Shown: positions 25,436 through 61,302 of the stretch, in pieces
Layout: every line of letters begins with the position of its first letter
How positions within the stretch are numbered: position 1 is the first letter of the stretch
Source of the DNA: an uncultured bacterium
GTDB lineage: Bacteria > Margulisbacteria > WOR-1 > CAVSGV01
Assembly (NCBI GenBank): GCA_963727815.1
Contig: CAVSGV010000006.1
Coordinates: forward strand, 336,851 to 400,850
DNA: 64,000 nucleotides
Direction: 5' to 3'
Program-made: the position numbers and the translations under genes
The notes under the pieces: model-generated
What the model saw: the letters and a program-made list of their open reading frames with translations, nothing else
Told to the model about the DNA's origin: nothing
The model's database searches: none

Positions 25436-25498
25436 AAATCCCAAATCCCACCCCCCAAATCCCAAATTTTGGGATTTGGAATTTGGTCATTGGGATTT
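25436..25498. repeat. Heptamer (AAATCCC/GGGATTT) tandem-repeat hairpin
   Basis: aaatcccaaatcccaccccccaaatcccaaat followed by tttgggatttggaatttggtcattgggattt, between divergent smc and rpsF. Confidence 0.85.
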
Positions 25499-25587
25499 TC
25501 GAACGATAGCCAGAATCATATGTTGCCAAAGATATGAGGCCTGTGCTATACTTCTCCGCTGTTCCCTATAACAAGGAGGTTCTTATA

Positions 25588-25980
25588 TTGAAACCATATG
25601 AAGCGATAATAATATTCAATGCGGGCATCGCGGAGGACAAGATAGACGCGTCCGTAGCGAAGTTCGAGAAAAAAATAAAGGATGCAGGCGGCACCGACAT
25701 AGCCGTCAACAAGTGGGGAATGAAAAAGCTGGCATCGCCCATGAAGAAGGCGAAAAAATCGACGGACGGTTTCTATGTCCTCATTAATTTCAACGGCGAA
25801 GGAAAAACCCCGAACGAGCTTAAATCTCTGCTTAACGTTTCCGAAGAGATCATCAGATATTCCGTCATAGCGTCAAGACCCGAACGGGAAGAAGTAAAAG
25901 AGGAAAAGGTCGAGATAGAACCCTCGATGATCATTCCTCAGGCCGCGCCATACGGCGGGCAGGGAGACACACCCGCATAA
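25588..25980 (+). CDS. rpsF: 30S ribosomal protein S6
   Basis: TTG start after AAGGAGG; KPYEAIIIF, WGMKKLA, GFYVLINF, IIRY; rpsF-ssb-rpsR context. Confidence 0.93.
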   Translation: MKPYEAIIIFNAGIAEDKIDASVAKFEKKIKDAGGTDIAVNKWGMKKLASPMKKAKKSTDGFYVLINFNGEGKTPNELKSLLNVSEEIIRYSVIASRPEREEVKEEKVEIEPSMIIPQAAPYGGQGDTPA

Positions 25981-26406
25981 ATGGCTAACCTTAACCGCAT
26001 AATACTGATCGGGAACCTTACAAGCGATCCTGAAGTCCGCTTCACCGTGGAAGGCCTGCAGGTAGCCAAATTCCAGCTCTCGGTGGACAGGTTCGTCCAG
26101 GAAGGCGCCCCCAAACAGGTGGACCTCATCGACGTGGTCGCGTGGAGGAAACTTGCGGAGATAACCGGCCAGTACCTGAAAAAAGGCAAACCCGTCCTCG
26201 TTGAAGGACGCATCCAGGTGAGGACCTACGAGAACGAAGGCGGAGCGAGAAAATGGGCCACCGAAGTGGTAGCGCGCAGCATCAAGCTCCTTGGCGGCAT
26301 AGTGAAAGATACACCGGTAAGCAATGCCGGAACCGAGCACGCGCCGAGCGATGACGTTCCAGGAATAGAAGAGCTTCCTGAAGAAGAAAGCGACCTGCCT
26401 TTTTAA
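25981..26406 (+). CDS. ssb: Single-stranded DNA-binding protein, copy 1
   Basis: NRIILIGNLTSDPE, VVAWRKLAE, VEGRIQVRTY, acidic tail SDLPF. Confidence 0.95.
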   Translation: MANLNRIILIGNLTSDPEVRFTVEGLQVAKFQLSVDRFVQEGAPKQVDLIDVVAWRKLAEITGQYLKKGKPVLVEGRIQVRTYENEGGARKWATEVVARSIKLLGGIVKDTPVSNAGTEHAPSDDVPGIEELPEEESDLPF

Positions 26407-26437
26407 ATTAATAATTTAAAAGGAAAAAAGCAAAAAT

Positions 26438-26847
26438 ATGTATAACAAAGTATTTTTAATAGGAAATTTAACCAAGGACCCTGAACTCAGATATACTCCG
26501 AGCGGGATACCTGTGGTCCGTTTTACCGTTGCGGTGAACAGGCCGTCCGCGAAATCGGAAAAGAACGAAGTGGACTTTATCAACGTCGTCGCGTGGAGAA
26601 GGCTCGCGGAGATATGCGGCGAATACCTGAAAAAGGGAAGACCGGTCTCCATCGAGGGCAGGCTTCAGATAAGGCCTTACGAAAAGGACGGAGAAAAAAA
26701 GATTTCGCGGAAGTGGTGGCCGACGGCATGCAGATGCTGGGCAGGAGAGAAGGCGCGCCGGGACCGGCATCGGCTGGCACGACAGAGCCATCCACTGAAT
26801 CTCACGCTCCGGAGACGCCGGCGGGAGAAGACGAGATACCGTTTTAG
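26438..26847 (+). CDS. ssb: Single-stranded DNA-binding protein, copy 2 (frameshift at A-run near 26700)
   Basis: MYNKVFLIGNLTKDPELRYTPSG..., continuing in another frame FAEVVADGMQMLG...EDEIPF*. Confidence 0.9.
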
Positions 26848-26894
26848 TAAATCGAGGATCGAAAATAGTAAATAGTTAATAGGAGGGATCACAT

Positions 26895-27158
26895 TTGGGA
26901 AGAAAAGAAAGAGACAGCAAAAAAGACAACAAGGATGAAAGACCGCAGAGAAAGCGCAGGAAAAAGCCCTGCATTTTCTGCGTCGACAAGTTCATGCCCG
27001 ATTACAAAAAGATCGATCTTATGAGGAGGTTCGTGAACGAGAGAGGCAAGATACTTACGATGAGGTCATCCGGCTGCTGCGCAAGTCATCAGAGAGCGGT
27101 CGCCAAAGAGATAAAGAGGGCAAGACAGCTGGGATTCCTTCCGTACACGGTGGAATAA
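26895..27158 (+). CDS. rpsR: 30S ribosomal protein S18
   Basis: [35 protein letters not shown]. Confidence 0.96.
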
Positions 27159-27610
27159 TGAAGGTAATACTCCTCAAGGACGTAAGGGACATAGGGACCG
27201 CGGATACCGTGAAGCCGGTCTCGGACGGCTATGCCAGGAACTTCCTTCTCCCCAATAAGCTGGCTGTGGAAGCCACGAAACCCGCTCTGAAAGCGCTGGA
27301 GGAGAGATCAAAGATCAAAGCCGCCAACACCGAAAAAGAGATCGCCGCTCTCAAAGATATAGCTTCAAAGATCAGCGGCAGCGAGATCGCCATCGCAGTT
27401 GATATGGGCGAGAACGGAAAGCTCTTCGGGTCCGTCACCCACCAGGACATCGCGCAGAAAATAAAAGAATCCTTCGGCGTCGACATAGACAAGAAAAAGA
27501 TCGTACTCGACGAGCCGATAAAAGCGGCGGGCACTTTCAACGTTCCGGTGAAGCTGGGCCACGAAGTGATCGCTTCCGTGAAAGTAAATGTTTCCGCAAG
27601 CGCCAGATAA
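27158..27610 (+). CDS. rplI: 50S ribosomal protein L9
   Basis: [26 protein letters not shown]. Confidence 0.97.
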
Positions 27611-29165
27611 ACCAGGCGTCTACCTCATAAAGGACAAGTCCGGCAGGGTCATCTACGTTGGCAAAGCCATCTCGATAGCAAAAAGGATACCCGCGCATTT
27701 CCGTCCGGACTCGAAGCTCGCCGGCCACATAGCGGATGTCGACTACATCGTCACGACGAACGAGCTTGAAGCGCTGATACTTGAAGCGGTCCTCATAAAA
27801 AAATATCATCCAAGATACAACGTCCTTCTGCGCGACGACAAGCAGTATCCATACATAAAGCTGACAGTGAACGAGGAATATCCCCGCATCTTAATGGTCA
27901 GGAAGATCGAAGATGACGGAGCGAAATATTTCGGCCCGTTCATGAGCCAGACCGTCCGGGATATTTTCAAGATGATCAAAAGGCTTTTTCTTATCAGATG
28001 GTGCAAGGAATTCAAGAAAAGGACGCAGCCCTGTTTCTATTATCACATGGGAAAATGCCTTGGTCCCTGCGCGAACGAAGGATCGAAGGAAGAATACATG
28101 CGGAACGTGAAGGACGTGGAACTTTTCCTGGACGGCAAGTATGGGTCGGCCATAACAAAATTGAGAGCGGAAATGAAGACGGCATCGGAGAGCAGGGAAT
28201 ACGAAGTGGCGGCCAGGATCCGCGACAAGCTCAAACTCTTCGAGAAATTCAGCGAGGAGCAGAAGATCGTTACCTCGGACACGAAAGACAAGGACGTATT
28301 CTCTCTCGTTACCGGCGGCAATTCCGCTCTGGTGCTTATCCTCGAGATAAGGGGAGGGAAGCTCATCGGCAAGGATTCGTATTTCATCAAAGACGTCAAG
28401 ATCGATGCGGAAGACCTGCTCTCAAGCTCCGTGATCCAGTATTATTCTTCGGCGGCGTACATACCGGAAGAACTTATCATCAATGCCGGAAAGAAGAAAG
28501 ATATCCTTGAGAGCGTGCTGACAAAGCTCAGGAAAAGCAAAGCAAAGATAATCACGCCTACGTCCGGAACTCCGCTCGGCCTGTTCAAAATGGCCCAGGA
28601 GAACGCCGAATATAATTTTCAGCAGAGATTGAAATCAGAAGGCTACATATCTGACGCGCTGTTCGACCTGAAAGGATCGCTCGGATTGGAAGCGCTTCCA
28701 TACAGGATCGAGGCATTCGATATCTCCACCACCATGGGTATCGAGACCGTTGGTTCTATGGTGGCTTTCGAGGGCGGGCTTCCGTTCAGATCTGATTACA
28801 GGAAATTCAAGGTGGCGCCCGGAAGGAAAGCCAACAATGATGTGGCTGGCATAAGGAACATAGTAATGAGAAGGTTCACCGGCAAACTCAGCACGGAACT
28901 TTCAGCTCCCGATCTGGTTGTCATCGACGGCGGCATCGGACAACTTAACGCGGCGAGACCGTTCATTCCGAAAGGCACCGCTGTTCTCGGCCTCGCGAAA
29001 AAACTCGAAGAGATATATCTGCCCGGAAAGAGAACGCCCATACGCCTTAAGATGAGCTCCCCGGCTCTCAAGTTGCTGAGAAGGATAAGGGACGAGGCTC
29101 ACCGCTTTGCCATAACCTTCCACAGGAAAAGAAGAGCGAAAAGGATGTTCGAAGCGGATAGGTAA
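27588..29165 (+). CDS. uvrC: Excinuclease ABC subunit C (lacks the C-terminal HhH tail)
   Basis: PGVY..IYVGKA GIY-YIG motif, [42 protein letters not shown]. Confidence 0.95.
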
Positions 29166-29213
29166 GTATATTAATGTATATTTGCGTAAATTAGCGAGAT
29201 CCAGAATTCGCGA

Positions 29214-30362: not shown

Positions 30363-30375
30363 GGAGCGGCGTCGC

Positions 30376-31374: not shown

Positions 31375-31375
31375 T

Positions 31376-32306: not shown

Positions 32307-32330
32307 TACCTCACCCCAATTTATCTCAAA

Positions 32331-32384
32331 CCTTCACCCCTTGGTTCTTCCCCCTCTCCTATTAGGAGAGGGGCAGGGGTGAGG
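32331..32384. repeat. REP-like palindrome (CCTTCACCCC...CCCCTCTCCTATTAGGAGAGGGGCAGGGGTGAGG)
   Basis: Nested GC-rich stems between co-transcribed ilvB and ilvN, with no U-tract. Confidence 0.7.
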
Positions 32385-34058: not shown

Positions 34059-34099
34059 AGTTTGTTGATTTTACAATTATGGGGGGGGATAGTCAAACC

Positions 34100-34170
34100 T
34101 AATAAGAAAATCGATAATCGAGAATAGAGAACAGGACTCAATTCCTATTTTCGATATTCCATTCCCGATT
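34100..34170. repeat. Degenerate heptamer inverted-repeat hairpin (AATCGAG-type)
   Basis: aataagaaaatcgataatcgagaatagagaacagg ... cctattttcgatattccattcccgatt, between ilvD and ilvB. Confidence 0.6.
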
Positions 34171-35822
34171 TACTTCAGCACCGCTCCAGTATTTGCCGAC
34201 GTCACCATTCTCGCGTACCTTGCCAGCCAGCCTGTTTTTACTCTCGGCTCCGGCGCTTTCCATGAAGCTTTGCGTTTCGCCAACTCGGCATCGGAGACTT
34301 TCACGTTGAGCTTTCTCGCGGGAATATCAAGCTCGATGATGTCTCCGTCTTTCACAAGAGCGATGGGCCCGCCTTCCGCCGCCTCGGGCGATATGTGGCC
34401 GATGCATGGCCCTTGAGTCCCGCCAGAAAATCGTCCGTCAGTTATCAGCGCCACGGAATCAGACAATCCCATTCCGACGATGGCTGAAGTGGGGGAGAGC
34501 ATCTCGCGCATTCCCGGTCCGCCTTTTGGCCCTTCATATCTGATAACGACCACGTCGCCGGCCTTGACCTTGCCGCTCATGATCGCATGCATCGAAGCTT
34601 CTTCACCGTCGAAACATTTCGCCGTTCCGGTTATCCTCTGGGCTTTTTCTGATACGGCGGTTTGTTTAACCACGCTTCCGTCCGGAGCGATGTTGCCCTT
34701 GAGGATCGCAATGCCGCCTTCCTTATGATATGGATTGTCCAGATTTCTTATCACATCGTTGTCGAACACGATCCCGTCTTTGGCGATATCCTTTATGTTC
34801 CTGCCGTTGACGGTATCGGCGCTCAGCAATCGATCTTTGAGAACATTCAGAACTCCGGGGATCCCGCCAGCATATTCCAGGTCCTCCAGGAAGAACGGAC
34901 CCGACGGCCGGAGATTGGTAATGTGCGGATTATCCCTGCTCATCTTGTCAAAGTCGTCGAGAGTTATTTCGATGCCGAATTCGTGCGCTATTGCCGGAAG
35001 ATGCAGAGCGGTATTCGATGACCCGCCGATGGACATGTCTACCATTATCGCGTTATGGATAGCGTTCTTTGTGACTATCGATCTTGGCTTGATATCACGT
35101 TTTACAAGCTCGACGATGCGCTCGCCGGAAGAATAAGCGATCCTTTTTTTCTTCGCGGAAACCGCAAGAGCTGTTCCGCATCCGGTGAGCGACATTCCCA
35201 TCGCTTCGGCGAGGCAGCTCATCGTGTTAGCAGTATAGAGGCCGGCGCACGAACCGGCTCCGGGGCAGATGTCCTCTTCCATGCAGTTCATGTCTTCCTC
35301 GGATATCCTGCCCGACTTGACCGCGCCTGCGGCTTCAAAGCCGTCGTGCACCAGATCGCGCTTCACCTGTTTGTATCTTCCGGCAAGCATCGGTCCGGCG
35401 GTCACCACTATTGCCGGCACGTTCAATCTTCCGGCGGCCATCAACATTCCGGGAGTTATCTTGTCGCACGCGGTCAGAAGTATCACGCCGTCAAGCTGAT
35501 GGGCTTCCACCATCGATTCGATCATGTCGGCGATCAACTCGCGCGATGCCAGAGAGTAATGCATGCCTTTGTGGCCCATCGCGATGCCGTCGCATATCGC
35601 GGGCAATCCGAATACGAACGGAACGCCGCCGCCGGCTGATATCCCGTTCTCGATGGCTCTTTCAAAATCTCTCATGTTCACATGGCCGGGAACGATGTCG
35701 GAAAAACTCGAAGCGATGCCGATGAAAGGCTTGCTCATTCCCGACCGGGTAACTCCTGTAGCGTATAAGAGAGCCCAATGGCCGGCCCGTTCGATACCTT
35801 TTTTTATCTGATCAGATCGCAT
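34170..35822 (-). CDS. ilvD: Dihydroxy-acid dehydratase
   Basis: [48 protein letters not shown]. Confidence 0.97.
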
Positions 35823-35919
35823 GATGATACCTCCGTTCGGATGCGGGTATTTTAGCACAGAATTCTGTCAATTATTATGCAATTTTTCACGGGAACTCTC
35901 GATAATATAGTAGAGGGAA

Positions 35920-36370
35920 GGTTAGAAATTAGTAATTAGAAATTAGTTTATCTTTGTTTGGGATTTGGCAATTGGGAATTGGGATTTATTTGCGAAAGCA
36001 AATTGCTGGGTTGTTCGTGACTTGTTGAAGGTTTGCAGACTATTTTTCCTGATTAAGTTCGGGAAATCCTTTAAGTACTGCTCAACTTTAACTTGACGGC
36101 AACCCAGTTTTATTTTGGAACAGTTGCAGTATAGCATAATCGCGAAAATATTTCAAGAGGCGCTTTTCTCTAATTTTGCCATCGCGAATAACTCGAAGGG
36201 TCAGGATCGCGAATTCACGAATGCTCACTAATTTACGCGAATATACACTAATCAATATGCCTTGATCGATTCGGATTCGAGATCATTAGAGTAAATTGGA
36301 ATTTATTCGAGAATTAGAGAGCTGATCTTTCGCGTTATTCGTGACAAGAAAAATTCGCGAGGATAAGCGA
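35920..36370. repeat. Intergenic cluster of heptamer repeats and nested approx. 9-bp-period inverted repeats
   Basis: ttagaaattagtaattagaaattag; tttgggatttggcaattgggaattgggattt; cgcgaataactcgaa pairing with ttcgcgttattcgtg; cacgaat/cactaat arms pairing with attagag/attcgag arms. Confidence 0.7.
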
Positions 36371-40668: not shown

Positions 40669-41449
40669 ATGAAAATCGATATTCTAACTTTATTCCCCTC
40701 GATGTTCTCTCCGCTTGATGAAAGCATTATCGGCAAGGCAAAGAGCAGGGGCCTGCTCGATATCCGCGTCACGGATATCAGGAGTTTCGCCGCCGATAAG
40801 CACAGGACAGCGGATGATTCTCCATACGGAGGAGGGCCGGGGATGGTGTTAAAACCCGATCTGATTATTGAAGCCATCAACGAGATTAAATCCCAAATCT
40901 CAAATCCCAAATCCCAAACAAATCTCAAATCAGAACATCAAAATTCCAAACCACTTGTTATTTTGCTTTCGCCTGCCGGAATCACGCTTGATGATAAGAA
41001 AGCGCGGGAGCTGGCGAAAGAGGAACATCTGGTGCTCATCTGCGGGCATTACGAAGGCGTGGACCAGAGAGCCATCGACGAACTCGTTGATGAAGAGATT
41101 TCCATCGGAGATTACGTTCTTACCGGCGGAGAGATACCGGCGATGGTCCTTATTGATGCAGTATCAAGGTTCATTCCTGGAGTTCCTGGGAGACAAGTCA
41201 TCATCAAGCGAGGAATCTTTCTCTTTCAGCCTGCTTGAATATCCGCAATACACAAAACCAGCGAACTGTTTGGGCAGGGAAGTTCCGGAAGTGCTCCTGA
41301 GCGGCGATCACAAAAAGATAGCGAGCTGGAGAAGAGAAGAATCGATAAAGAACACTTTCTTCAGGCGGCCGGACCTTTTATCGAAGGCCGACATCACCAC
41401 GGAAGACAAAAAGCGCCTTGAAAGCATATTCACGGGAGAGGCCGAATGA
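40669..41449 (+). CDS. trmD: tRNA (guanine-N1)-methyltransferase (frameshift near 41185; in-frame heptamer-repeat insertion)
   Basis: DILTLFP, DDSPYGGGPGMV, CGHYEGVDQR, SIGDYVLTGGE, then LLEYPQYTKP, VPEVLLSGDH. Confidence 0.94.
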
Positions 41450-46332: not shown

Positions 46333-47852
46333 TAAAGGTCATCAGCGCCGCGATATCAGGGCTCGACGGTTTCATCGTTGAGGTCGAGATCGATTCCATC
46401 CGCGGCTTGCCGGGGCAATCGATAGTCGGCCTTCCCGACGCGGCGGTGAAGGAAAGCCGGGACAGGGTCAAATTTGCTATCACCAATTCTGGTTTTGAAT
46501 TTCCGCCGGGTTACTTCACCATCAACCTTGCACCTGCCGACGTTCGCAAAGAAGGGCCTATCTACGACCTTCCGATCGCCGTGGGAATGCTGGCGTCTTC
46601 CGGCCAGATAAAGAGCGACAGGCTGAAAGAGACGATAATCCTCGGCGAGCTGTCGCTTGACGGCGGACTTCGCGCGGTGAACGGCGTTCTCTGCATGTGC
46701 ATGGCCGGCCAAACATCAGGGATAAAAAGGATCATCGTGCCGAAGGAGAACGCGGATGAAGCGGCGCTCGTGTCAGATATCGAAGTCATCGCCTGCCGAA
46801 GCCTGCTCGACGCCGTCGGATACCTGAACGGCGAACTTAATATCAAGCCGCATAAGATCGATATCAACGCGCTTTTTTCGTCCCAGCCGCCTTTCGACAT
46901 CGACTTCTCCGACGTGAAAGGGCAGGGGCACGCGAAGAGAGCGCTTGAAGTGGCGGCGGCCGGCGGTCACAACATCCTGATGGTCGGCTCTCCGGGAAGC
47001 GGGAAGACCATGCTGGCAAGGCGTTTGCCGACGATACTTCCGCCGCTTTCGATAAAGGAAGCGCTGGAAGTGACGAAACTCTACAGCGTTACCGGATTAT
47101 TGAGTTCAAAGGTATCACTGATCACATCGCGTCCATTCCGATCTCCTCACCACACAACGTCCGACATCGGAATAATCGGCGGAGGCAGGATCCCCCGTCC
47201 TGGGGAGGTTAGCCTGGCGCACCTCGGAATACTTTTCCTTGACGAATTCCCCGAATTCGAAAGGAAGGTGCTCGAGGTGCTCCGGCAGCCGCTCGAGGAC
47301 GGAATTGTTACCATCGCGCGTGCGATGAGCTGCGTCACATATCCCGCGGCATTCATGCTTGTTGCGGCGATGAATCCGTGTCCGTGCGGGAATTACATGG
47401 ACCCCGCGAAATCATGCACGTGTCCCTCACATAAAGTCCAGCGATACTGGGGAAAACTCTCAGGTCCTTTACTGGATAGGATCGATCTTCACGTGGAAGT
47501 GCCTCGATTGAAGAAAGAGGAACTATCAGGCCATGGAACCGGGGAAACTTCGGAGGCGATACGACAAAGGGTCTCGAAAGCGCGGGATATTCAGCTTGAT
47601 AGATTTAAAGGGTCGAACATTCACAGCAACTCAAGGATGCTGCCAAAGCACGTGAGAGAATTCTGCAAGCTTGATAAAGAAGCCGAGAGCCTCCTTAAAT
47701 CCGCCATTCTCCAATTGAAGATGAGCGGAAGAAGTTATGATCGAATTTTGAAGGTATCACGTACTATTGCTGACCTTGATAATTCTGAAGTCATCAAGGC
47801 GAATCACATCGCGGAAGCTATTCAATATAGGTCGTTGGACAGGGGGAAGTAA
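46326..47852 (+). CDS. comM: YifB/ComM Mg-chelatase-like AAA+ ATPase
   Basis: GTG start; VGLPDAAVKESRDRV, NLAPADVRKEG, GSPGSGKT, FLDEFPEF, AAMNPCPCG, LLDRID, EAIQYR. Confidence 0.94.
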   Translation: MLIKVISAAISGLDGFIVEVEIDSIRGLPGQSIVGLPDAAVKESRDRVKFAITNSGFEFPPGYFTINLAPADVRKEGPIYDLPIAVGMLASSGQIKSDRLKETIILGELSLDGGLRAVNGVLCMCMAGQTSGIKRIIVPKENADEAALVSDIEVIACRSLLDAVGYLNGELNIKPHKIDINALFSSQPPFDIDFSDVKGQGHAKRALEVAAAGGHNILMVGSPGSGKTMLARRLPTILPPLSIKEALEVTKLYSVTGLLSSKVSLITSRPFRSPHHTTSDIGIIGGGRIPRPGEVSLAHLGILFLDEFPEFERKVLEVLRQPLEDGIVTIARAMSCVTYPAAFMLVAAMNPCPCGNYMDPAKSCTCPSHKVQRYWGKLSGPLLDRIDLHVEVPRLKKEELSGHGTGETSEAIRQRVSKARDIQLDRFKGSNIHSNSRMLPKHVREFCKLDKEAESLLKSAILQLKMSGRSYDRILKVSRTIADLDNSEVIKANHIAEAIQYRSLDRGK

Positions 47853-47857
47853 TATCT

Positions 47858-48445
47858 ATGGGAATAACAAATAAGATGATTACCATTCAAAATAAAATAT
47901 TTGAGTTAAGAGGACAGAAGGTAATGCTCGATAAGGATATTGCGGAATTATACGGTATTTCAACAAAAGCGCTGAATCAGGCGGTTAGAAGGAATGTTGA
48001 GAGATTCCCTGCGGATTTTATGTTCCAGCTGGCCTATAACGAGATCATCGATATGACAGCGATGAAACAAAGGAAGGGTTCAAGGTCACAAAATGTGACC
48101 TTGAACAGAGGCAAGAATATCAAATATTTGCCTTATGCTTTTACCCGGAATGGCGTAAATATGCTGGCGACAGTGCTAAAGTCCAGGATCGCGGTGCAAA
48201 GATCGATATTCATAATGCGCGCTTTTTCGGTCCTGGAGGAAGCTGTCGGGTCAAGGGGAAAGCAGATATTAAGCAGTCCGCAGGTCATCAAACAGTTATC
48301 GCTGCACTCGAAGGCGATAATGAGACTTTTCAAGGAAACGGGAATAAACAGCAAGAACATATCCTTGCTGAAAAAGCTTCAGGAAGAGATGGGCAAATTG
48401 ATCCAAAAGATAATAATCTCTTCCATTGTGAACGAAGGGAAATAA
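47858..48445 (+). CDS. ORF6N-domain DNA-binding protein
   Basis: RGQKVMLDKDIAELYG, LNQAVRRNVERFPADFMFQL, RSQNVTL, LPYAFT. Confidence 0.9.
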   Translation: MGITNKMITIQNKIFELRGQKVMLDKDIAELYGISTKALNQAVRRNVERFPADFMFQLAYNEIIDMTAMKQRKGSRSQNVTLNRGKNIKYLPYAFTRNGVNMLATVLKSRIAVQRSIFIMRAFSVLEEAVGSRGKQILSSPQVIKQLSLHSKAIMRLFKETGINSKNISLLKKLQEEMGKLIQKIIISSIVNEGK

Positions 48446-48455
48446 AAAGGTATAA

Positions 48456-48587
48456 ATGTTTAAGGTCATTTGCCGGTTCCCGATCAATTCGATAACGGAA
48501 GTATATCTCAGCGAGCAGGAGCTGAATGTTTGGCTGACCAGGGCGTTCTTAAGAGCGAGGATAATCAGTTACGAGAGGATTTCGTAG
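48456..48587 (+). CDS. Possible 43-aa small protein
   Basis: AAAGG SD, then MFKVICRFPINSITEVYLSEQELNVWLTRAFLRARIISYERIS*; ends just before the heptamer tract. Confidence 0.45.
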   Translation: MFKVICRFPINSITEVYLSEQELNVWLTRAFLRARIISYERIS

Positions 48588-48590
48588 AAA

Positions 48591-48660
48591 AGTTGCTAGT
48601 TGTCAGTTGCCAATTTCCAGTTGCCAGGTGCCAGTTGCTAGGTCCCAGTAAAAATGCAGT
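48591..48660 (+). repeat. Heptamer tandem repeat, 8 x AGTTGCY-like, upstream of the four-helix-bundle gene
   Basis: agttgct agttgtc agttgcc aatttcc agttgcc aggtgcc agttgct aggtccc, then agtaaaaatgca. Confidence 0.9.
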
Positions 48661-48677
48661 AAAGGAGAATTGAATAT

Positions 48678-49046
48678 ATGGTAAAGATCAAGGATTACAG
48701 AGATCTGGTAGTTTGGCAGAGGGCGCACAAATTGGTTCTGGCGATATATAGGGTCACAAGACAATTTCCTGCAGAAGAGAAATATGGGCTTGTTCAGCAG
48801 ATAAGGCGGTCAGCGGCTTCGATTCCAACAAACATAGCTGAAGGCACTGAAAGATATTCCAGGAAAGAATATCTACAATTTCTTTATATTAGCAGAGGCT
48901 CATTATCAGAAACAGATTATCATGTACTGTTAAGCTATGACCTTGAGTACATTTCGAGCGAAACATATAATATTCTGAGCACAATGATAATTGAAATCGG
49001 AAAGATGCTAAATGGCCTGATAAATGCACTTAAGCCCAGTTGCTAG
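48678..49046 (+). CDS. Four-helix-bundle protein (23S rRNA IVP / Avd-fold family)
   Basis: YRDLVVWQRA, FPAEEKYGLVQQIRRSAASIPTNIAEG, FLYISRGSLSE; SD AAGGAG. Confidence 0.93.
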   Translation: MVKIKDYRDLVVWQRAHKLVLAIYRVTRQFPAEEKYGLVQQIRRSAASIPTNIAEGTERYSRKEYLQFLYISRGSLSETDYHVLLSYDLEYISSETYNILSTMIIEIGKMLNGLINALKPSC

Positions 49047-49149
49047 TTTCTAGTTGCCAGCTTCCAGTTGTTAGTGAAAAATGCAATAAGCCCCTTGTAT
49101 AATATCTTTCCTGTTTTCACTAGCAACTAGCACCTAGTACCTGGCAACT
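49038..49149. repeat. Heptamer inverted-repeat hairpin (5 forward + 4 reverse AGTTGCY units)
   Basis: agttgct agtttct agttgcc agcttcc agttgtt agtgaaaa ... ttttcact agcaact agcacct agtacct ggcaact. Confidence 0.9.
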
Positions 49150-49170
49150 TGTTTTTCTCTGCTTTCCCCC

Positions 49171-49198
49171 TTGCTCCCGTCACAGCCCGGCGTATAAT
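49171..49198 (+). promoter_or_regulatory. Module promoter A (TTGCTC-16-TATAAT)
   Basis: ttgctc ccgtcacagcccggcg tataat; homologous to the promoters at 49886 and 50662. Confidence 0.7.
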
Positions 49199-49217
49199 TC
49201 CCCCTAGAGGTGAGAGA

Positions 49218-49721
49218 ATGAAAAAAATATTATTCCTGTTATTTCTGAGCGCGATGCTAATTCTGCCGAGTTCATCAGCGACGGTGAACAGCAAGAACGG
49301 CCTGGAGGTGGCGAACCCGAACAGGCTGGGGATATACATCGAGGACCTGGACCAGCACGCGATCAGCATAGGATTATCAAAGGATGATATAACGGCAAGA
49401 GTTAAGGCTAAATTGAGCCAGAGCAACATCAAGGCGGAGACGAATTCGGCGAAGAAGGCGTACTTGTATGTGAACATCAACACTTTCGGGGCGCCCTTGA
49501 CCAGTTTCAACATTTACGTAAGTTTTGACAGGAACGTCCGGTTCGACGCGGGCGATGACACTTACACTTCTTACGGAGCGCACACATATTTCAAGGGTTT
49601 CACGGGGATAGCGGAATCAAATAAAGCCGCGGGTCTCATCCTGCAGGCGCTGGACGGGTTACTTGACCAGTTCATAAGCGATTACACTGATGCCAACATC
49701 GCGAGGATGAGAAAGTACTGA
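49218..49721 (+). CDS. Hypothetical exported protein
   Basis: SD GAGGTG; signal peptide MKKILFLLFLSAMLILPSSSA. Confidence 0.8.
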   Translation: MKKILFLLFLSAMLILPSSSATVNSKNGLEVANPNRLGIYIEDLDQHAISIGLSKDDITARVKAKLSQSNIKAETNSAKKAYLYVNINTFGAPLTSFNIYVSFDRNVRFDAGDDTYTSYGAHTYFKGFTGIAESNKAAGLILQALDGLLDQFISDYTDANIARMRKY

Positions 49722-49758
49722 TTATTATTTTGATGCTGACGGTCAGGGCGAAGCAGGA

Positions 49759-49913
49759 AGGGATTAGTGGCTAGTGGTTGGGGGTTAGTGAGTGGTCAGG
49801 CATCAAGGGATCAGTATTTTCTATTCACTTAATGCCCGAACACTCACAAACCACTATCCCCTGATCCCTGACCACTACTTATTGCTTGATACCGCAACCT
49901 GCGGGCGTATACT
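49759..49913 (+). repeat. 155-bp module copy 1: heptamer hairpin plus promoter B (TTGATA-16-TATACT)
   Basis: Aligns without gaps to 50535-50689 with about 22 mismatches by manual count. Confidence 0.92.
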
Positions 49914-49935
49914 AATTATGTAAGGCGGTGAAATA

Positions 49936-50043
49936 ATGGGTAAAGGCGATAACAGAGAGAAAAAAGACACAAAAAAAGCTCCAAAGAAAACTCTTAAAGA
50001 AAAGAGAGCTGACAAAAGGGCTAAAAAAGAGAGCAAACAATAG
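49936..50043 (+). CDS. 35-aa highly basic small protein
   Basis: MGKGDNREKKDTKKAPKKTLKEKRADKRAKKESKQ*, directly after promoter B and an SD-like GGCGGTG. Confidence 0.7.
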   Translation: MGKGDNREKKDTKKAPKKTLKEKRADKRAKKESKQ

Positions 50044-50071
50044 AATAGATCGGTTTGTTGAGGAGAAATAA

Positions 50072-50494
50072 ATGCTCGATTGGAAACTGTACGCCGTAGG
50101 CTCCGCATTATTCGCGGGGTTGACGGCGGTGCTTGCGAAGGTGGGGGTCAGGCATATCTCATCCAACATGGCCACGCTGGTGCGGACGTTCGTTATCATC
50201 ATATTCATCGGGGTGGTCGTGGGGATGAGGCGGGAGTGGAAGAGCCCGTTTTCGCTGGACAAGGTAAGTCTGACGTTCCTTGTGCTTTCCGCGATAACCA
50301 CGGGGCTTTCGTGGCTCTGCTATTTCCGCGCTCTGCAAGGAGGCCCCGCGTCTCTGGTGGCTCCCATCGATAAACTCAGTCTGGTCTTCGCGGTGGTTCT
50401 GTCGCTGATGTTCCTTGGCGAGCGGCTGGGCGCCTATCAATGGCTGGGTGTCTGCCTGATAACCTGCGGGACTTTGATCATTATTTTTAAGTAG
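50072..50494 (+). CDS. EamA/DMT family transporter (single domain)
   Basis: SALFAGLTAVLAKVG, TGLSWLCYFRALQ, VAPIDKLS; SD GAGGAG. Confidence 0.92.
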   Translation: MLDWKLYAVGSALFAGLTAVLAKVGVRHISSNMATLVRTFVIIIFIGVVVGMRREWKSPFSLDKVSLTFLVLSAITTGLSWLCYFRALQGGPASLVAPIDKLSLVFAVVLSLMFLGERLGAYQWLGVCLITCGTLIIIFK

Positions 50495-50534
50495 CTTGCC
50501 ATCCATCCCATTGCAATGTGCCTATCGAATAAAG

Positions 50535-50689
50535 AGGGGTTAGTGGCTAGGGGTTAGGGATTAGTGAGTGATCAGGGAATAAGTGATCAGTATCTTCTAA
50601 TCACTGAATGCCTAAATTCTCACTAACCACTATCCCCTGATCCCTGACCACTACTTCTTGCTTGCTACCGCAACACGCGGGCGTATAAT
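50535..50689 (+). repeat. 155-bp module copy 2: heptamer hairpin plus promoter C (TTGCTA-16-TATAAT)
   Basis: Direct repeat of 49759-49913, offset 776 bp. Confidence 0.92.
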
Positions 50690-50707
50690 CTTTCTCGAGG
50701 TGGCGAG

Positions 50708-50944
50708 ATGATGAAAAAAGCATTTAACAATCCATATGTTATTGCTATTATTTCCGGCTTAATTGTTATGGTTTTAACCATCACTATTCAAAGAATCTTT
50801 TTTCCACCTAAAGCAAGGATAACAACCGAAAGCAGAGTAACGATTAAAACTTCGAACAAGGCAATAACAATTGAAGGTAGCCCATCCAAGCCAGCAGATA
50901 TTGAATTACAAATGAAGTATCCGGATTATCTTAAAAGTAAATAA
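50708..50944 (+). CDS. Small membrane-anchored hypothetical protein (AT-rich)
   Basis: SD GAGGTG; one N-terminal TM helix. Confidence 0.65.
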   Translation: MMKKAFNNPYVIAIISGLIVMVLTITIQRIFFPPKARITTESRVTIKTSNKAITIEGSPSKPADIELQMKYPDYLKSK

Positions 50945-50956
50945 GGGGATAAGAGA

Positions 50957-51979
50957 ATGAATATTTTATTTTTATTATATATTCTATTAGCTTATTTATT
51001 ACTAGGCTTTCTTAGGTTTATTGCCGACTATAGAAAGCCTTTTTACAATCAGCCTGGATATATTAAAGGCATAATATATAAGGATTTATTCAATGCAATT
51101 ATAGGCCTGCCTATTTTTATTTATTTTTTAATTATTGATGCCATGAATATATTTGATGATTATGGCGTATATGCTCAATGGAAAAAAAGAAATAATCGAC
51201 GGGAATTAATGGCGACAGTTGACAATAAAACAAGTAAAGTTGCCCAATGGATAGAGATGCAATATCAAAAATATCTCGTAAAAAACCCTTCACTTATGCA
51301 GGCATTATCATTCGAAGAAATTCGAGTGATTACATACTTTATTACTTGGGCTAAAGTTAATAAATCTGGGGATCGAGTTCCCGAATTATTAGGTAAGCCT
51401 ATGCTGGAATGGATTGCGCCATATCAGAATGATGCTACGCTTTTTGAGTTGGGGTGTCATTTGTATTTTATTATTGATCTCTGGCATGTCAAACATGGCT
51501 ATAAGCCATTAAGGAGTTTTGTCGTACGATACCTTATCAGAGATTTTATAGAGATCTTCGAAGATTCATTGGGAATTCGCCATGCTGATGAGATATTCCT
51601 GAATAGATGGGCTTACTATTCAGGACTTATAAATAGAAATAACTTAACTGTTCCTACTGAAGAAATATTCTTTACGCTATCAAATCTAATCGGCAGCACA
51701 AGAAATAATACCCCGCCCAAAAAACATGACATTGGTCGTATGCCACTTAGTGGCGGGGATGCTATTGATCATGTTTTCAGAGAAAGAGACATTCTTGATT
51801 TTCTTATATCGGCAATTCCGATCAGCTTAAAATTCATCAAAAGATTCTATGAGGATTATCCAGACAGTAAGAGGAATAAATTATATGCTGCTGATGGCGT
51901 ATACCCATCAAAAGAATTTCTTATGGATGATTTGTATACTGATATCAGCACCTATAAACGAAAAAATCCAAATGAATAA
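50957..51979 (+). CDS. Hypothetical membrane-anchored protein (AT-rich)
   Basis: 340-aa ORF with two N-terminal hydrophobic segments; visibly much lower GC than core genes. Confidence 0.75.
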   Translation: MNILFLLYILLAYLLLGFLRFIADYRKPFYNQPGYIKGIIYKDLFNAIIGLPIFIYFLIIDAMNIFDDYGVYAQWKKRNNRRELMATVDNKTSKVAQWIEMQYQKYLVKNPSLMQALSFEEIRVITYFITWAKVNKSGDRVPELLGKPMLEWIAPYQNDATLFELGCHLYFIIDLWHVKHGYKPLRSFVVRYLIRDFIEIFEDSLGIRHADEIFLNRWAYYSGLINRNNLTVPTEEIFFTLSNLIGSTRNNTPPKKHDIGRMPLSGGDAIDHVFRERDILDFLISAIPISLKFIKRFYEDYPDSKRNKLYAADGVYPSKEFLMDDLYTDISTYKRKNPNE

Positions 51980-52232: not shown

Positions 52233-52247
52233 ACAGATTAATGTTGT

Positions 52248-57159: not shown

Positions 57160-57160
57160 T

Positions 57161-58372
57161 TCAGCTCCTGTCCGGGGAAGAGAGCACCCTGTCGTACATC
57201 TCTTCAGTTTTCCGGGCGGAAGACTCGATGGAGAAATTCTCCTCCACTTTTTTTCTTCCCGCCTCTCCGAACGACCTCAGCCTTGACGGGTTCTGCAGAA
57301 AGACCCTCAGGAGCGAAGCCAGTTCCGCCTCGCTGTCCGGGTCCTTCATGAGAAAACCCGAAACGTGCTCATCGATGACTTCCGGTATTCCGCCTATCCT
57401 GGAGCCGATAGCCGGAATGCCCGATGCGCCCGCCTCCGCGTAAACAAGACCGAAAGCGTCCTCATGCGACGGCACGACAAGGACATCCGATGCCGAATAA
57501 ACATCAGGCATGTCAGACGGAGAAATGAACCCCGTGAATATCACCTTATCCTTAATGGGCTCCGCCAGTTTTTTGAGAGAGTCGATGTACGGAGTGGCTT
57601 TTTCACCGGAATTGTAAAAATGGCTTCCCACGATCAGCACTTTGACCTTCTTGCCGCTGTTCACCAGAAGGCCGGCGGCTTTTATGAGAGTGTGCACGCC
57701 TTTTTCCTTTCGCAGCCTTCCCGCGAAGAGCAGGACCAGCTCATCATCAGCTATCCCGTAACGCTTCCTTATCTCCGCTGCTTTAGCGGCATTCTCCCAT
57801 TTGGGCTTGAATTTCTTGAGGTTGATCCCGTTATAAATGGTGAAGCATCTTTTGGCATCGAGAGGGAAGCGGTCGATGATCTCCTCCTTCACCGTGTGGT
57901 TGCTTATTCCGGCAAAAGCGTCGAACATGTTCAGGTATCTTTCAACCTCGCCCTTGCTCATCTCCGCGAAATACCGGTTGTGGTGATGGAGTATCAGCTT
58001 CGTATTGACGCTGACGTATTTCCGCAGTATCGGCAGGAACCACGGCCTGTTCATGACGTGGATGATATCCGGCTGAATTTCCTTTATCTGCTTGATGATC
58101 TCGTACACGTACGGGAAATAATTCTTTGTCGTAAGGAACCTCATCCGCATTTTCAGCTCGTACCAAGACGACAGGCATATCCGCCTGTGCTCGACATTGC
58201 CGATGGTCTCGCGCGCGGGAAGATGGTCTATTCCGTATTCGCAGTTGGAGAAAACGTAAGGCTTGAATTCCCTGTAGAGCGGAGTTACCTCCCAGATGAC
58301 GGTCTGGATCCCGCCGCCTCTTATCGGCGGAATGGGGAAAGAATTCGGGGCTATTATCGCGGCTTTCAACAT
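57161..58372 (-). CDS. Glycosyltransferase family 4
   Basis: PIPPIRGGGI, FAGRLRKEKG, DAFGLVYAEA, GGIPEV. Confidence 0.92.
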   Translation of the reverse strand: MLKAAIIAPNSFPIPPIRGGGIQTVIWEVTPLYREFKPYVFSNCEYGIDHLPARETIGNVEHRRICLSSWYELKMRMRFLTTKNYFPYVYEIIKQIKEIQPDIIHVMNRPWFLPILRKYVSVNTKLILHHHNRYFAEMSKGEVERYLNMFDAFAGISNHTVKEEIIDRFPLDAKRCFTIYNGINLKKFKPKWENAAKAAEIRKRYGIADDELVLLFAGRLRKEKGVHTLIKAAGLLVNSGKKVKVLIVGSHFYNSGEKATPYIDSLKKLAEPIKDKVIFTGFISPSDMPDVYSASDVLVVPSHEDAFGLVYAEAGASGIPAIGSRIGGIPEVIDEHVSGFLMKDPDSEAELASLLRVFLQNPSRLRSFGEAGRKKVEENFSIESSARKTEEMYDRVLSSPDRS

Positions 58373-59541
58373 ATCGATCTTATCATCTTCTCGTGCAGGT
58401 CCGTGAATTTTTTCCTGATTCCGTTCATGCTCTTTATCGCGTTCTTCCTCATCCTCCGGACCGTTGATGGATCCGCCAGTTCAGATATCTTCCTTGCCAT
58501 GTCGTTAATGTCCACCAGCGCCGCCCTGACAAGCAGGTGCCGGTCTTTTCTGGTCTCCCACCGGGCAACTTTCGCCAGGAGCCCGTTGTATCCGTCCTTC
58601 ACCCATTCGTTCATCGGAGGAGCGTCCACGGTCACCACCGGCAGTCCCATCGCCAGGGATTCAAGGAAAGGAATGCCGATGCCTTCCCATTTGCTCGGAA
58701 GAAGCGAGACGTCGCAGGAGCGGTAGACGTCCATCATCTCTTTCATTTCGAGCTCCCTGTCCATGACGCTGATGCGCTCGTTCTTTTTGATGATGTCGCG
58801 CACCACTTCCGGATAATCTTTGAGCGGCTTCTGCGAGGTTATCACCAGCCTGATGTCCGCGGACCTGGACGCCTTGTCGAAAGCTTCCACGACCGCCAGG
58901 GTGTTCTTCCTCCATTCGATGCCGCCGTGACCCGCGTTGTGGAAGAATTTCACGGGTTTTCCGACATCCCTTTTCGCGGGCGCGAACATCTTTTCATCAA
59001 TTCCCCAGCGGATGAACTTCGTATTGCGGAAGCCGAATCTTTTGAGAAGGTCCTGAGTGCATTTGACGGGGCAGTGGAGGGCGGTATACATGCTGTAGTG
59101 GCTGAACTCTTCCTTCTTTATCGTTTCGTAATTGATCTCCATTACCGTGGCCACGCCGTTCTTTTCGCACCACTGAAGGACTTCTTTGTCCTCCAGCCTG
59201 TCAGGGAAGATCACTACCTTAAGCCCCCGGTCCCTGATCCACTTGATGACCTTCCACGGCTTAATGACCTTTGTGTAGACAAGCTCCTTGTATCCCCAGT
59301 CGGCTTCGTCCTTTATGAAATTTTTATACGCGAAGATGTACACATCATGTTTTACGCTGAGGCATTTGGAAAGGAACCTGGATTGGTAGGGGACGCCCTG
59401 CCTTGCCCATGAAGAAACGATGCCTATCCTCGGCGATCTTCTGGCGGTTTTCCTTGATACGACGGTCTTAACTTCGATCTCGTTCTTGTAAAAATAGAGC
59501 AAGGCGACCGCCATCACTATCGCGGCGATTATCAATGTCAT
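58366..59541 (-). CDS. Glycosyltransferase family 4 with N-terminal membrane anchor
   Basis: LPSKWEGIGIPFLESLAMGLPVV. Confidence 0.88.
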   Translation of the reverse strand: MTLIIAAIVMAVALLYFYKNEIEVKTVVSRKTARRSPRIGIVSSWARQGVPYQSRFLSKCLSVKHDVYIFAYKNFIKDEADWGYKELVYTKVIKPWKVIKWIRDRGLKVVIFPDRLEDKEVLQWCEKNGVATVMEINYETIKKEEFSHYSMYTALHCPVKCTQDLLKRFGFRNTKFIRWGIDEKMFAPAKRDVGKPVKFFHNAGHGGIEWRKNTLAVVEAFDKASRSADIRLVITSQKPLKDYPEVVRDIIKKNERISVMDRELEMKEMMDVYRSCDVSLLPSKWEGIGIPFLESLAMGLPVVTVDAPPMNEWVKDGYNGLLAKVARWETRKDRHLLVRAALVDINDMARKISELADPSTVRRMRKNAIKSMNGIRKKFTDLHEKMIRSIC

Positions 59542-59634
59542 GATGCGGAATTATAACACATTTTTACCGCATTCCCGATTGAAAAGGGAGGCGGCAGGGA
59601 CTAGAATGATTCCAAATTTTCAGGAGGTGGTCTT

Positions 59635-59967
59635 ATGCCGGCAAAAAAGAAAGTGGTAAAGAAAGCGAAACCGAAATCCAAGAAGGCGAAAGCGGCGAAG
59701 AAGCCCAAGGTCAAGAAAGAAAAGTTATTGGGAAAGGTTGAACACGTTTTTGACAAGATAAGCGTCATGGCGGTGAAAATGAAGGCTCCTTTAAAGGTCG
59801 GGGACGTGATCCACGTGAAAGGCCACACCACCGATTATGAAATGCCGATAGTTTCCATGCAGATAGAACACGAGCAGGTCCAGAAAGTGAAAAAAGGAGA
59901 TGACGTCGGCATAAAGGTGCCCCAGCACACGCGCGAGGGCGACGGGGTTTACCTGAAGAACAAATGA
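59635..59967 (+). CDS. Small beta-barrel protein (translation-factor-like/U32 peptidase C-terminal-like) with Lys-rich N-tail
   Basis: GKVEHVFDKISV, LKVGDVIHVKGHTTD, SMQIEH, GDDVGIKV. Confidence 0.8.
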   Translation: MPAKKKVVKKAKPKSKKAKAAKKPKVKKEKLLGKVEHVFDKISVMAVKMKAPLKVGDVIHVKGHTTDYEMPIVSMQIEHEQVQKVKKGDDVGIKVPQHTREGDGVYLKNK

Positions 59968-61217
59968 AGAGCCTGGAACTTAAATACGGCAACAAGAAGA
60001 TATCGCTGAAGCTTGGCGAGGGCAGGATACTGTCGGTTGTTGAAGGCAATAAGCTGCTTCCCCTCGCGAACCCGTCGGAAAAAATTAAGCGCGTCCTCAA
60101 ATATCCAATATCTTCAAAAAGCATGCACGAGACTTTCTCTCCGGGCGAGAAGACGGCGATAATCGTCTCTGACCGGACGCGCAACATTGCGGCGTCCGCT
60201 TTTCTTCCCGTCCTCATCGATGAGCTGAATTCCATAGGCATCAAGGACAGCGACATATTCATAGTGTTCGCCTGCGGAACCCACAGGCTTCACACAAAGG
60301 AAGAGCACGCGAAGATAGTGGGCAAAGAAGTTGCAGCCAGGATCAGACTCATGGACCACGACGGCATGGACAAGGACAATCTTGTCGAGCTCGGCACGAC
60401 GTCGAGGGGCACGAAAGTCGCGATGAACAAGAAAGTGCTCGATGCCGACAGGGTGATACTCACCGGCGCGATAACTTACCATTATTTCGCGGGATATGGC
60501 GGAGGAAGGAAAGCCGCGCTTCCGGGAGTTTCCGCATTTGAGACGATCCAGACCAATCACAAGCTCTGCCTCGGAAATGACATGGCAAAGACGGGCATCC
60601 TCAAAGGCAATCCCGTGCACGAGGACATGCTCGAGGCCGCGAGGATGCTGGACCCTGACTTCATATTCAACGTCATCCTCGACGATACCGGACGCATCGC
60701 AGCTGTTTTCGCCGGCGACCTTGAGAAAGCGCATCTTGCCGGGTGCGAGGAGATGGACAGGAACTTCAAGGTGAAGATCGAAAAGAAAGCGCCGTTCGTC
60801 ATCGTCGCGGCGGGCGGAGGGAACAAGGACCTGAACTTCGTTCAGACGCACAAGGCGATGGAAATGGCGTCCTACGCTCTGGAGGAAGGCGGGACGATGG
60901 TACTTCTGGGAGAATCCAGCGAAGGATTCCCGTCCGGCGAATACCTGAAATACGTCAACCTGGGTTCTGCCGAAGCGATAGAGAACGAACTCAAGAGAAA
61001 GTTCACTATCCCCGGCCACACGATACTATCGGCCTTCAAAAAAGCGGAGAGGTTCAAGATCATCTGGGCGTCGAAACTTGATGAAGGAACGATCAGGAAA
61101 TTCGGCATCACTCCGGCGGAGAACCTAGCCCACGCGATGAACTTGGCGGGAGACGCGGGACCTGCCTACATAATGCCTCAGGGATACAACACCTTTCCGT
61201 ATACAAAATCCCAATAA
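59964..61217 (+). CDS. LarA-family nickel-pincer-dependent racemase/epimerase
   Basis: SDRTR, ACGTHR, GTTSRGT, HYFAGYGGGRK, GNPVHEDM. Confidence 0.9.
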   Translation: MKSLELKYGNKKISLKLGEGRILSVVEGNKLLPLANPSEKIKRVLKYPISSKSMHETFSPGEKTAIIVSDRTRNIAASAFLPVLIDELNSIGIKDSDIFIVFACGTHRLHTKEEHAKIVGKEVAARIRLMDHDGMDKDNLVELGTTSRGTKVAMNKKVLDADRVILTGAITYHYFAGYGGGRKAALPGVSAFETIQTNHKLCLGNDMAKTGILKGNPVHEDMLEAARMLDPDFIFNVILDDTGRIAAVFAGDLEKAHLAGCEEMDRNFKVKIEKKAPFVIVAAGGGNKDLNFVQTHKAMEMASYALEEGGTMVLLGESSEGFPSGEYLKYVNLGSAEAIENELKRKFTIPGHTILSAFKKAERFKIIWASKLDEGTIRKFGITPAENLAHAMNLAGDAGPAYIMPQGYNTFPYTKSQ

Positions 61218-61302
61218 CAAAATCCCAAATCCCAACAAAGTGTCCTTCGGACATATTTAATATAAATTCATTGTTTGGATTTGGGATTTGAGATTTGGGA
61301 TT
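61205..61302. repeat. Heptamer (AAATCCC/GGGATTT) inverted-repeat hairpin between convergent genes
   Basis: aaaatcccaataacaaaatcccaaatcccaac ... ttggatttgggatttgagatttgggatt; overlaps both stop codons. Confidence 0.85.

Follow-up and report, generated by a model that had tools for sequence, protein, structure and literature searches.

A 64,000-nucleotide stretch of the genome of an uncultured bacterium of the Margulisbacteria (contig CAVSGV010000006.1 of assembly GCA_963727815.1), here called the window, carries short tandem arrays of seven-nucleotide units, several of them set head to head as hairpins. We think it probable, if by a modest degree, that these arrays and hairpins, in the window and across the genome, are the gene-less majority of one family of cassettes of the intervening-sequence (IVS) type. 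In its full form the cassette would consist of a gene of the PF05635 family, encoding a four-helix-bundle protein, enclosed by two inverted arms, each of 4-5 heptamer units or about 31-33 nt. The design would be that of the 23S rRNA IVS that bear an open reading frame (ORF), but with placement between and inside protein genes.

The study genome (G000) comprises 1.68 Mb in six contigs and is 70% complete. The comparison genome (G004), from another genus of the same family, is a complete, single contig of 1.77 Mb with an estimated completeness of 95%. Arrays were located with Tandem Repeats Finder (TRF) and by lag-7 autocorrelation, with thresholds of at least 15 matches in 21 for the window and at least 16 in 21 for genome-wide counts; sequence simulated by a third-order Markov model gave the chance level. 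Period 7 accounts for 13 of 33 TRF rows in the window and 158 of 807 in the study genome. The autocorrelation scan identifies 96 period-7 arrays in that genome against two in simulated sequence, with 31 arrays at period 6, 32 at period 9 and no more than 13 at each remaining period. The comparison genome has 141, and 46 or fewer at any other period. Period-7 arrays are far beyond chance, and on the genomic scale this bears out an earlier note on the same DNA, which had described a system of seven-nucleotide repeats in the window.

The arrays are of restricted size. Those with 4-5 good units number 85 of 96 in the study genome and 108 of 141 in the comparison genome, the lower limit of four being set by the detection threshold, and only two and eight, respectively, exceed six units. 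An inverted partner is located within 700 nt of 62 of 150 study-genome arrays (1.6% by chance), which gives 44 hairpins with a median arm of 33 nt; the other 88 arrays are one-armed. Genome G003 has no PF05635 hits, is 81% complete and is fragmented. Its 20 longest contigs (308 kb) contain six arrays, a density of 1.95 per 100 kb compared to 5.7 in the study genome and 8.0 in the comparison genome, and period 7 is no higher there than periods 6 and 9. The lower density is a weak hint, coming as it does from a single genome and an assembly biased against repeats.

All 13 arrays in the window fall within 25435-61308 and none occurs before 25435. They are positioned at 25435-25495, 26849-26885, 34101-34137, 35917-35951, 35954-35990, 40883-40923, 48590-48649, 49035-49070, 49114-49151, 49759-49786, 50534-50575, 50620-50649 and 61270-61308. 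Period 7 is present at every place named in the earlier note, as is the TTGGTCA heptamer, at 25483. The inverted-repeat layout claimed for the same places stands at six of ten (25436, 34100, 49038, 49759, 50535 and 61205). At about 26848, about 35957 and 40888 the arrays are direct or one-armed, and 48591 is the far arm of a gene-bearing unit.

That unit is a full cassette. An AGTTGCY array of 8.4 units is followed by the gene, a second copy of the left arm placed over the stop codon, and an inverted right arm. That arm has two alternative pairing partners, the near copy, with a 50-nt loop, and, across the gene, the far arm (48617-48654 against 49114-49151, 38 nt with 30 Watson-Crick pairs). 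The encoded protein (48678-49046) matches TIGR02436 with an E value of 1.3e-40 and PF05635 with 1.2e-42, and its closest solved structures are 2gsc (E 3e-22) and 2rld, each deposited with five chains. The study genome has nine PF05635 genes, one of them split, and all nine are placed between inverted short-repeat arms. The arm units are heptamers in seven of these cassettes and approximately 10 nt in two that are close paralogues.

The arrangement extends beyond the phylum. A search of other phyla, made with an alignment of four cassette proteins since an eight-protein alignment was too divergent, found inverted arms at 59 of 80 PF05635 loci as opposed to one of 77 distal controls, with period 7 at 50 of the 80 and any other period at 10 or fewer. 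Two cassette orthologue pairs are available between the study and comparison genomes. Protein identity in these pairs is 71%, the same as the proteome median, and the arm family is kept; the genes of the cassettes evolve as ordinary host genes do.

The window protein also matches, more weakly, bAvd (PF22296, 43.7 bits) and the Avd model of diversity-generating retroelements (51 bits, under the cut-off of 80). The repeats might then be remnants or satellites of such retroelements, with the four-helix-bundle protein acting as Avd together with a reverse transcriptase. We regard this as extremely improbable. There is no RVT_1 match in the 70% complete study genome, nor in the complete G004, G001, G002 or G005, which carry 4-10 PF05635 genes each (10 in G004), and unit variation is not confined to adenines.

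Two observations concern the arms themselves. A four-helix-bundle gene of the comparison genome (C1:1541452-1542113) has on one side a long array of TTCTAAC units, eleven of them identical (1542003-1542113), which greatly exceeds the usual 4-5. At C3:205250-205330 of the study genome and in the trmD insert of G002, heptamer arms or arrays enclose small GC-rich stem-loops. They recall Nostoc, where small dispersed repeats reportedly occur inside heptamer repeats.

Is it the period or the sequence of the units that is constrained? The earlier note proposed that period rather than sequence is recognized, and that the repeats fall into at least four sequence families. When 100 paired arrays from the study and comparison genomes are put in left-arm orientation and aligned by rotation, a core emerges of A (99%), A or G (62 and 34%), A or T (59 and 33%) and T (84%), followed by three variable positions. 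The information content of this core is 5.54 bits. Permuted units give 3.68 ± 0.14 and arrays of scrambled orientation 4.39 ± 0.09, and none of 60 replicates of either kind reached the observed value. In 50 cassettes from other phyla the core is A-G-Y-T, with 4.13 bits against 3.54 ± 0.11 and none of 100 replicates reaching it. Since all families share an oriented, in-phase core, the four families are variants of one grammar. Each unit comprises four core nucleotides, A-R-W-T as read on the 5′ arm of either strand, and three free positions, so that sequence and period are both constrained. The notion that period alone matters is contradicted by this common core and also by the two cassettes with units of about 10 nt.

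The gene-less arrays are tied to the cassettes by position and by sequence. Nine of the 96 study-genome arrays are within 300 nt of PF05635 genes, where the fraction of the genome covered predicts about 0.5. Among the gene-less arrays of the study genome 54 of 87 match the arms of resident cassettes and 32 match those of the comparison genome, with a mean of 9.6 for random flanks. The corresponding values in the comparison genome are 87 of 133 for resident arms, 60 for study-genome arms and 6.8 for random flanks. The association with four-helix-bundle genes suggested earlier is therefore sustained, by the matching arms, by the enrichment near these genes and by the bracketing of all nine.

Comparison of the two genomes (940 reciprocal best hits, median identity 71%) gives 680 conserved neighbour pairs. 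Arrays occupy 25 of these in the study genome alone, 36 in the comparison genome alone and 19 in both genomes; of the 80 conserved spacers with arrays, 61 differ. Several are filled and empty pairs in which a spacer of 1-10 nt is opposite an element of 60-110 nt. Where the flanks of a whole cassette are collinear, the cassette is present in both genomes in one case and is opposite an empty site of 0-55 nt in six. The window contains two of these empty sites, a 55-nt spacer at 14148-14204 and a 5-nt spacer at 47852-47858, whose counterparts in the comparison genome are whole four-helix-bundle cassettes of 693 and 787 nt, respectively; two others are inside a pilus or secretion operon of that genome. 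The insertion polymorphism anticipated in the earlier note, there between strains, is thus seen between related genera, at 61 array sites and six whole-cassette sites. Gain and loss of the units occur in discrete pieces, at spacers, stop codons and tolerant protein loops.

Copying is evident in a whole hairpin of about 95 nt that is approximately 95% identical at C3:155632-155729 and C1:~111650-111750 of the study genome, with unrelated flanks; other copies are mostly diverged. A duplicate of over 500 nt (C6:434990-435530 and 446908-447431) is 100% identical except for a 21-nt, three-unit indel in a heptamer array. Arrays alter their unit number by slippage, and they can also persist for long periods.

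The 21-nt indel is what would be expected if the arrays were plain simple-sequence repeats, built in place by slippage that favours 7-nt units, with inverted pairs and neighbouring genes incidental. Heptamer simple-sequence repeats are in excess in many bacteria, with polymerase slippage offered as the explanation, and Coxiella strains vary in unit number, according to the accessible parts of PMC4692102 and PMC4990558, respectively. As an account of the whole system we nevertheless consider slippage very unlikely. Unit families recur at many unrelated loci (AAATCCC alone provides 21 TRF rows in the study genome), inverted partners greatly exceed chance, and the near-identical hairpin is found at two unrelated loci. 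Units are capped at 4-6, unlike the open-ended lengths of slippage. The oriented core common to all families and the bracketing of every PF05635 gene also speak against it.

Movement by a Y1 (RAYT-like) transposase, as for elements of the REPIN type (doublets of repetitive extragenic palindromes, REP) or miniature inverted-repeat transposable elements (MITE), has in its favour the REPIN-like hairpin-doublet layout and the presence of Y1_Tnp genes, two in the study genome and one each in G004, G001 and G002. It is very improbable given that the repeats flanking the Y1_Tnp genes are of other kinds, an 18-nt unit in tandem in the study genome and GGAACC...GGTTCC palindromes in the comparison genome, and that in these two genomes no heptamer arrays are found beside them. 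The 18-nt repeat (C6:201570-201665, about five copies) adjoins the two neighbouring Y1_Tnp genes of the study genome and is not dispersed elsewhere in that genome; one of these genes belongs to a 485-aa fusion ORF whose C-terminal part is secretin-like. The palindromes constitute a separate family of 27-28 nt, with 13 exact-pattern copies in the study genome and one for a control pattern. Among others they occur at C1:49625, 49662, 70705, 116339 and 122463, C3:355085 and C6:137396, 225487, 423558, 487703 and 533589. Since such hairpins flank the single Y1 gene of the comparison genome on both sides, they look like a REP/RAYT pair apart from the heptamer system.

The placement and folding of the arrays bear on the main rival to the gene-less cassette explanation, namely that these are RNA or DNA structures serving the host (terminators, insulators, RNase III sites or REP-like stabilizers of mRNA) and maintained by selection, with the gene an accessory factor or passenger. 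Five window hairpins have stable folds, with z scores from -3.7 to -6.2. Of 71 array edges adjacent to stop codons 26 are within 5 nt of the stop, and the loop of the hairpin at 61206, placed between convergent genes, scores on both strands as a terminator-like stem. Sites are shared between the two genomes at five times the level of independence and arm families are kept at orthologous sites. Unpaired arrays in tandem spacers favour the sense strand, 35 to 18 (p 0.027). In the accessible text of PMC4990558 the stems of the Coxiella IVS are described as cut by RNase III.

Against a host function are the genomic context and the poor pairing. Placement was judged with crude gene calls (approximately 86% coding in the study genome). 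Seventy-five of the 96 arrays are outside the interior of confident genes, 57 in tandem, seven in convergent and 11 in divergent spacers, roughly in proportion to the 1132, 139 and 138 such spacers of the genome. With no convergent excess, no avoidance of divergent spacers and the remaining 21 arrays deep in genes, the placement is not that of intrinsic terminators. Terminator-like sites number 14 in the region 47.5-62.5 kb, compared to 16.4 in shuffled sequence, and adjacency to promoters, described below, is local only. Many arrays, the 88 noted above, have no inverted partner.

The arms are 75% Watson-Crick paired (1141 of 1517 positions). Wobble-type mismatches make up 136 of 376, about the random third, and those of the GU type are divided 77 to 59 between the strands, without the asymmetry of an RNA stem. 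The paired fraction is 0.87 at conserved phases and 0.59 at variable phases against 0.45 if independent, the 0.59 being inflated by the choice of best alignment, so the compensatory signal is small. Most arm complementarity thus derives from the shared core and not from selection for a stem. In our view the host-structure explanation loses ground because the copies show no spacer preference, pair poorly and in many cases are one-armed or within genes, and it gains from the long persistence of some sites; on balance we hold it to be unlikely.

The 21 arrays deep inside confident ORFs have hosts that include trmD, rsmH, miaB, ribF, bioA, glpK, valS, gcvT and queA, and both glpK and a rimO-like gene contain full hairpins in frame. 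Unpaired arrays inside genes are sense-oriented in 28 cases and antisense in six, a bias that peptide tolerance may explain. Alignment with comparison-genome orthologues shows clear in-frame insertions in ribF (9 of 12 residues opposite gaps), a pabB-like gene (10 of 13) and the glpK hairpin (8 of 22), and the bioA insert is shared between the genomes. The trmD array encodes the loop insert KSQISNPKSQTNLKS, absent from distant TrmD orthologues. Heptamer-coded inserts that differ in length or unit occur in this surface loop across several genera, and in G040, of another family, the loop insert has AGAAATT / AAAATAG units. The TrmD loop is either a site that is hit recurrently or a very old, shifting one. 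The trmD gene of the window (40669-41449) is split over two frames, 40669..41238 and 40868..41449, with a switch near 41190-41200. In relatives trmD is one ORF of 242-281 aa, and the split is a frameshift or an assembly error.

How might such a cassette act? The arms are probably protein-binding arrays. A pentamer-forming protein would bind the arm repeats, engaging about five cores at 7-nt spacing in a manner similar to the trp RNA-binding attenuation protein (TRAP). That PF05635 pentamers bind the arms is something we infer from the numbers of units and chains, and from the fact that protein clade and core type are inherited together. If the resident cassette protein is the ligand then gene-less copies would depend on proteins of cassettes of the matching family. 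A more specific proposal, which we put forward tentatively and regard as doubtful, is that the pentamer recognizes some five A-R-W-T cores, spaced by 7 nt, along an arm in single-stranded form and that this protein-repeat pair alone, with neither a transposase nor a reverse transcriptase, propagates both the cassette and its gene-less copies.

Several points weigh against taking the arrays and hairpins as gene-less members of the cassette family. The lower edge of the range of unit numbers comes from the detection threshold. In the study genome 33 of the 87 gene-less arrays have no match among the arms of resident cassettes, and the AAAAGTG/AAAAATG hairpins lack a resident gene in its 70% complete assembly. 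The earlier note regarded the hairpins as empty derivatives of a gene-carrying unit. The arm families are indeed the same, but gene loss as such is unsupported: in the study and comparison genomes no orthologous site has the full unit in one and a gene-less hairpin in the other. The idea that loops of the AAATCCC type are remnants of the 3′ tail of a full unit was rejected, as only one of five beat shuffled sequence (3 of 500 shuffles, as against 39, 44, 153 and 163 of 500 for the others). The resemblance of loop to tail is one of architecture only, an AT-rich stretch and a small GC stem before the right arm.

The record of insertion is also imperfect. Many in-gene arrays occupy variable loops whose length is similar or the same in the orthologue, and these arrays were not inserted recently. 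One filled junction repeats a stretch of approximately 15 nt covering a ribosome-binding site and start, with three differences, and the other filled and empty junctions examined have no target-site duplication. Pairing at variable positions of the arms is somewhat above independence, as given above. The 19 shared array sites compare with 3.6 expected if independent, and one cassette is syntenic across genera; such long persistence fits a host function as well as it does a selfish element.

The individual window elements illustrate this variety. The AAATCCC-type hairpin at 25436-25498, with arms 25436-25466 and 25468-25498 about a 1-nt loop and an RNA-folding z score of -3.7, is positioned between divergent genes, upstream of rpsF. 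At 26849-26885, on the forward strand in a tandem spacer, is a single short array of AATCGAG / AAATAGT units with no inverted partner; the matching spacer of the comparison genome carries an ATTAGAN array. A weak hairpin of AATCGAG-type units at 34104-34175 (arms 34104-34136 and 34143-34175, 24 of 33 positions Watson-Crick, z -2.4) fills an operon spacer that is 1 nt in the relative. Two adjoining direct arrays on the forward strand, TTAGAAA then TTGGGAA (35917-35990), do not form a hairpin (z +0.6). The trmD array, identified by TRF and orthologue comparison, is AAATCCC x4.4, in frame on the forward strand at 40883-40931.

The cassette occupies the forward strand, with its left arm (AGTTGCY x8.4) at 48591-48654, which pairs across the 122-aa four-helix-bundle gene with 49114-49151. 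Immediately after the gene is a hairpin of the gene-less type (49032-49155, z -5.1) that consists of the second left-arm copy (49032-49080, overlapping the gene stop codon), a loop of 33-50 nt and the right arm (49114-49155). A long composite hairpin of TAGTGGY and GATCAGG units (49756-49880, z -4.4) has a paralogue at 50534-50660 (84% identity over 61 nt, z -5.0). The last element, an AAATCCC-type hairpin at 61206-61303 (z -6.2), exactly fills the spacer between its convergent genes, and within its loop are an AT-rich stretch and, at 61240-61254, a small GC stem capped by TTCG. Across the window (1-64000) nothing attains the gathering score of any Rfam family, and so that search detects no tRNA or other known RNA gene there. 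Public reads cover 47900-51000 only as short DNA contigs of near-identical sequence from three metagenome runs (freshwater sediment and peat), with word shares of 0.07-0.11, none spanning any element and no RNA run listed for the region.

Three promoter-like sites, at 49163-49190, 49886-49913 and 50662-50689, are each just 3′ of a hairpin and share GGCGTATAAT or GGCGTATACT; GGCGTATAAT is found only six times in the study genome. The site that follows 49756-49880 is TTGATA-16-TATACT and that after 50534-50660 is TTGCTA-16-TATAAT. As a general property of the hairpins promoter adjacency was rejected. The strict pattern TTG..-N16-18-TATA[AC]T occurs at only three of 74 hairpin ends genome-wide, all in the window at 49.1-50.7 kb, and looser promoter-like sites are at 10 of 74 ends compared to 6.7% of control windows. 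Between two of the hairpins, and upstream of a gene for a 140-aa EamA-type membrane protein, is a 35-codon, lysine-rich ORF (MGKGDNREKKDTKK..., 49937-50044) with no family match.

Three puzzles have long been kept separate: the nature of ORF-bearing rRNA IVS, the excess of heptamers in many bacteria and the role of the PF05635 family. In the study and comparison genomes they would appear as parts of one system. Were the pentamer proposal true, then rRNA IVS, heptamer repeats (the short tandemly repeated repetitive sequences, STRR, and the Xanthomonas GGGAATC arrays) and the PF05635 family would represent one undescribed kind of mobile element. The system seen in the two genomes has measurable rules: an oriented core of 4 nt, units that are spaced at 7 nt and number 4-5 in each arm, inverted pairing, and discrete gain and loss that includes housekeeping genes. 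Annotators would gain a way to recognize elements that now are unannotated or fall within spurious ORFs. A literature search, with subscription journals outside its coverage, found no paper joining PF05635 genes to genome-wide heptamer arrays; the nearest are PMC4990558 and PMC4692102.

The closest known system is the IVS of Coxiella burnetii, for which the accessible part of PMC4990558 describes a terminal stem of 28 bp, excision by RNase III, heptameric repeats that vary and an ORF for S23p. The same part of that paper cites a Xanthomonas homologue of S23p as a homopentameric toroid. The IVS, so far as that text describes them, and the present cassettes have in common a PF05635/S23p ORF within terminal inverted repeats of approximately 28-38 nt, variable heptamers, and gene-less or decaying versions. 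The location differs. The elements described here are not in rRNA; they occupy the spacers of protein genes, stop codons and in-frame positions within genes, and the 23S gene of the study genome (C5:29600-32531) is uninterrupted, its 2932 nt matching model positions 1-2925 with no insert. There are dozens of gene-less copies per genome, and the arms are 75% complementary where the Coxiella stem is nearly perfect.

Heptamer repeats of the STRR kind are said to have been described in cyanobacteria by Mazel et al. in 1990, and STRR proper belong to heterocystous cyanobacterial hosts. For Xanthomonas and Nostoc the accessible text of PMC4692102 describes GGGAATC / GGGGAYT heptamer arrays, with 70-75 convergent inverted pairs in Xanthomonas, and treats them as G-quadruplex-forming simple-sequence repeats; that paper contains no occurrence of 'helix bundle', 'S23' or 'intervening'. 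The arrays reported here share with STRR and the Xanthomonas arrays the tandem heptamers, a mostly intergenic location, often by the end of an upstream ORF with a few in genes, and variation in unit number and sequence between relatives. They are distinguished by the many unit families per genome, which are mostly not G-rich, by the A-R-W-T core and by the tie to PF05635.

Rickettsia palindromic elements insert in frame into protein genes. These, together with MITE, REP and REPIN, resemble the elements discussed here in being short, scattered hairpins, with one near-identical pair at unrelated loci, some in-frame inserts in housekeeping genes and larger, gene-bearing relatives. Dissimilar to MITE, REP and REPIN, the heptamer copies have no accompanying transposase that we could find, and their arms are arrays with an internal period, not unique terminal repeats. 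The TRAP ring protein reads spaced triplets in RNA and offers an analogy only: short cores at fixed spacing, and about five cores per arm for a family that crystallizes with five chains. The PF05635 fold and subunit number are unrelated to those of TRAP.

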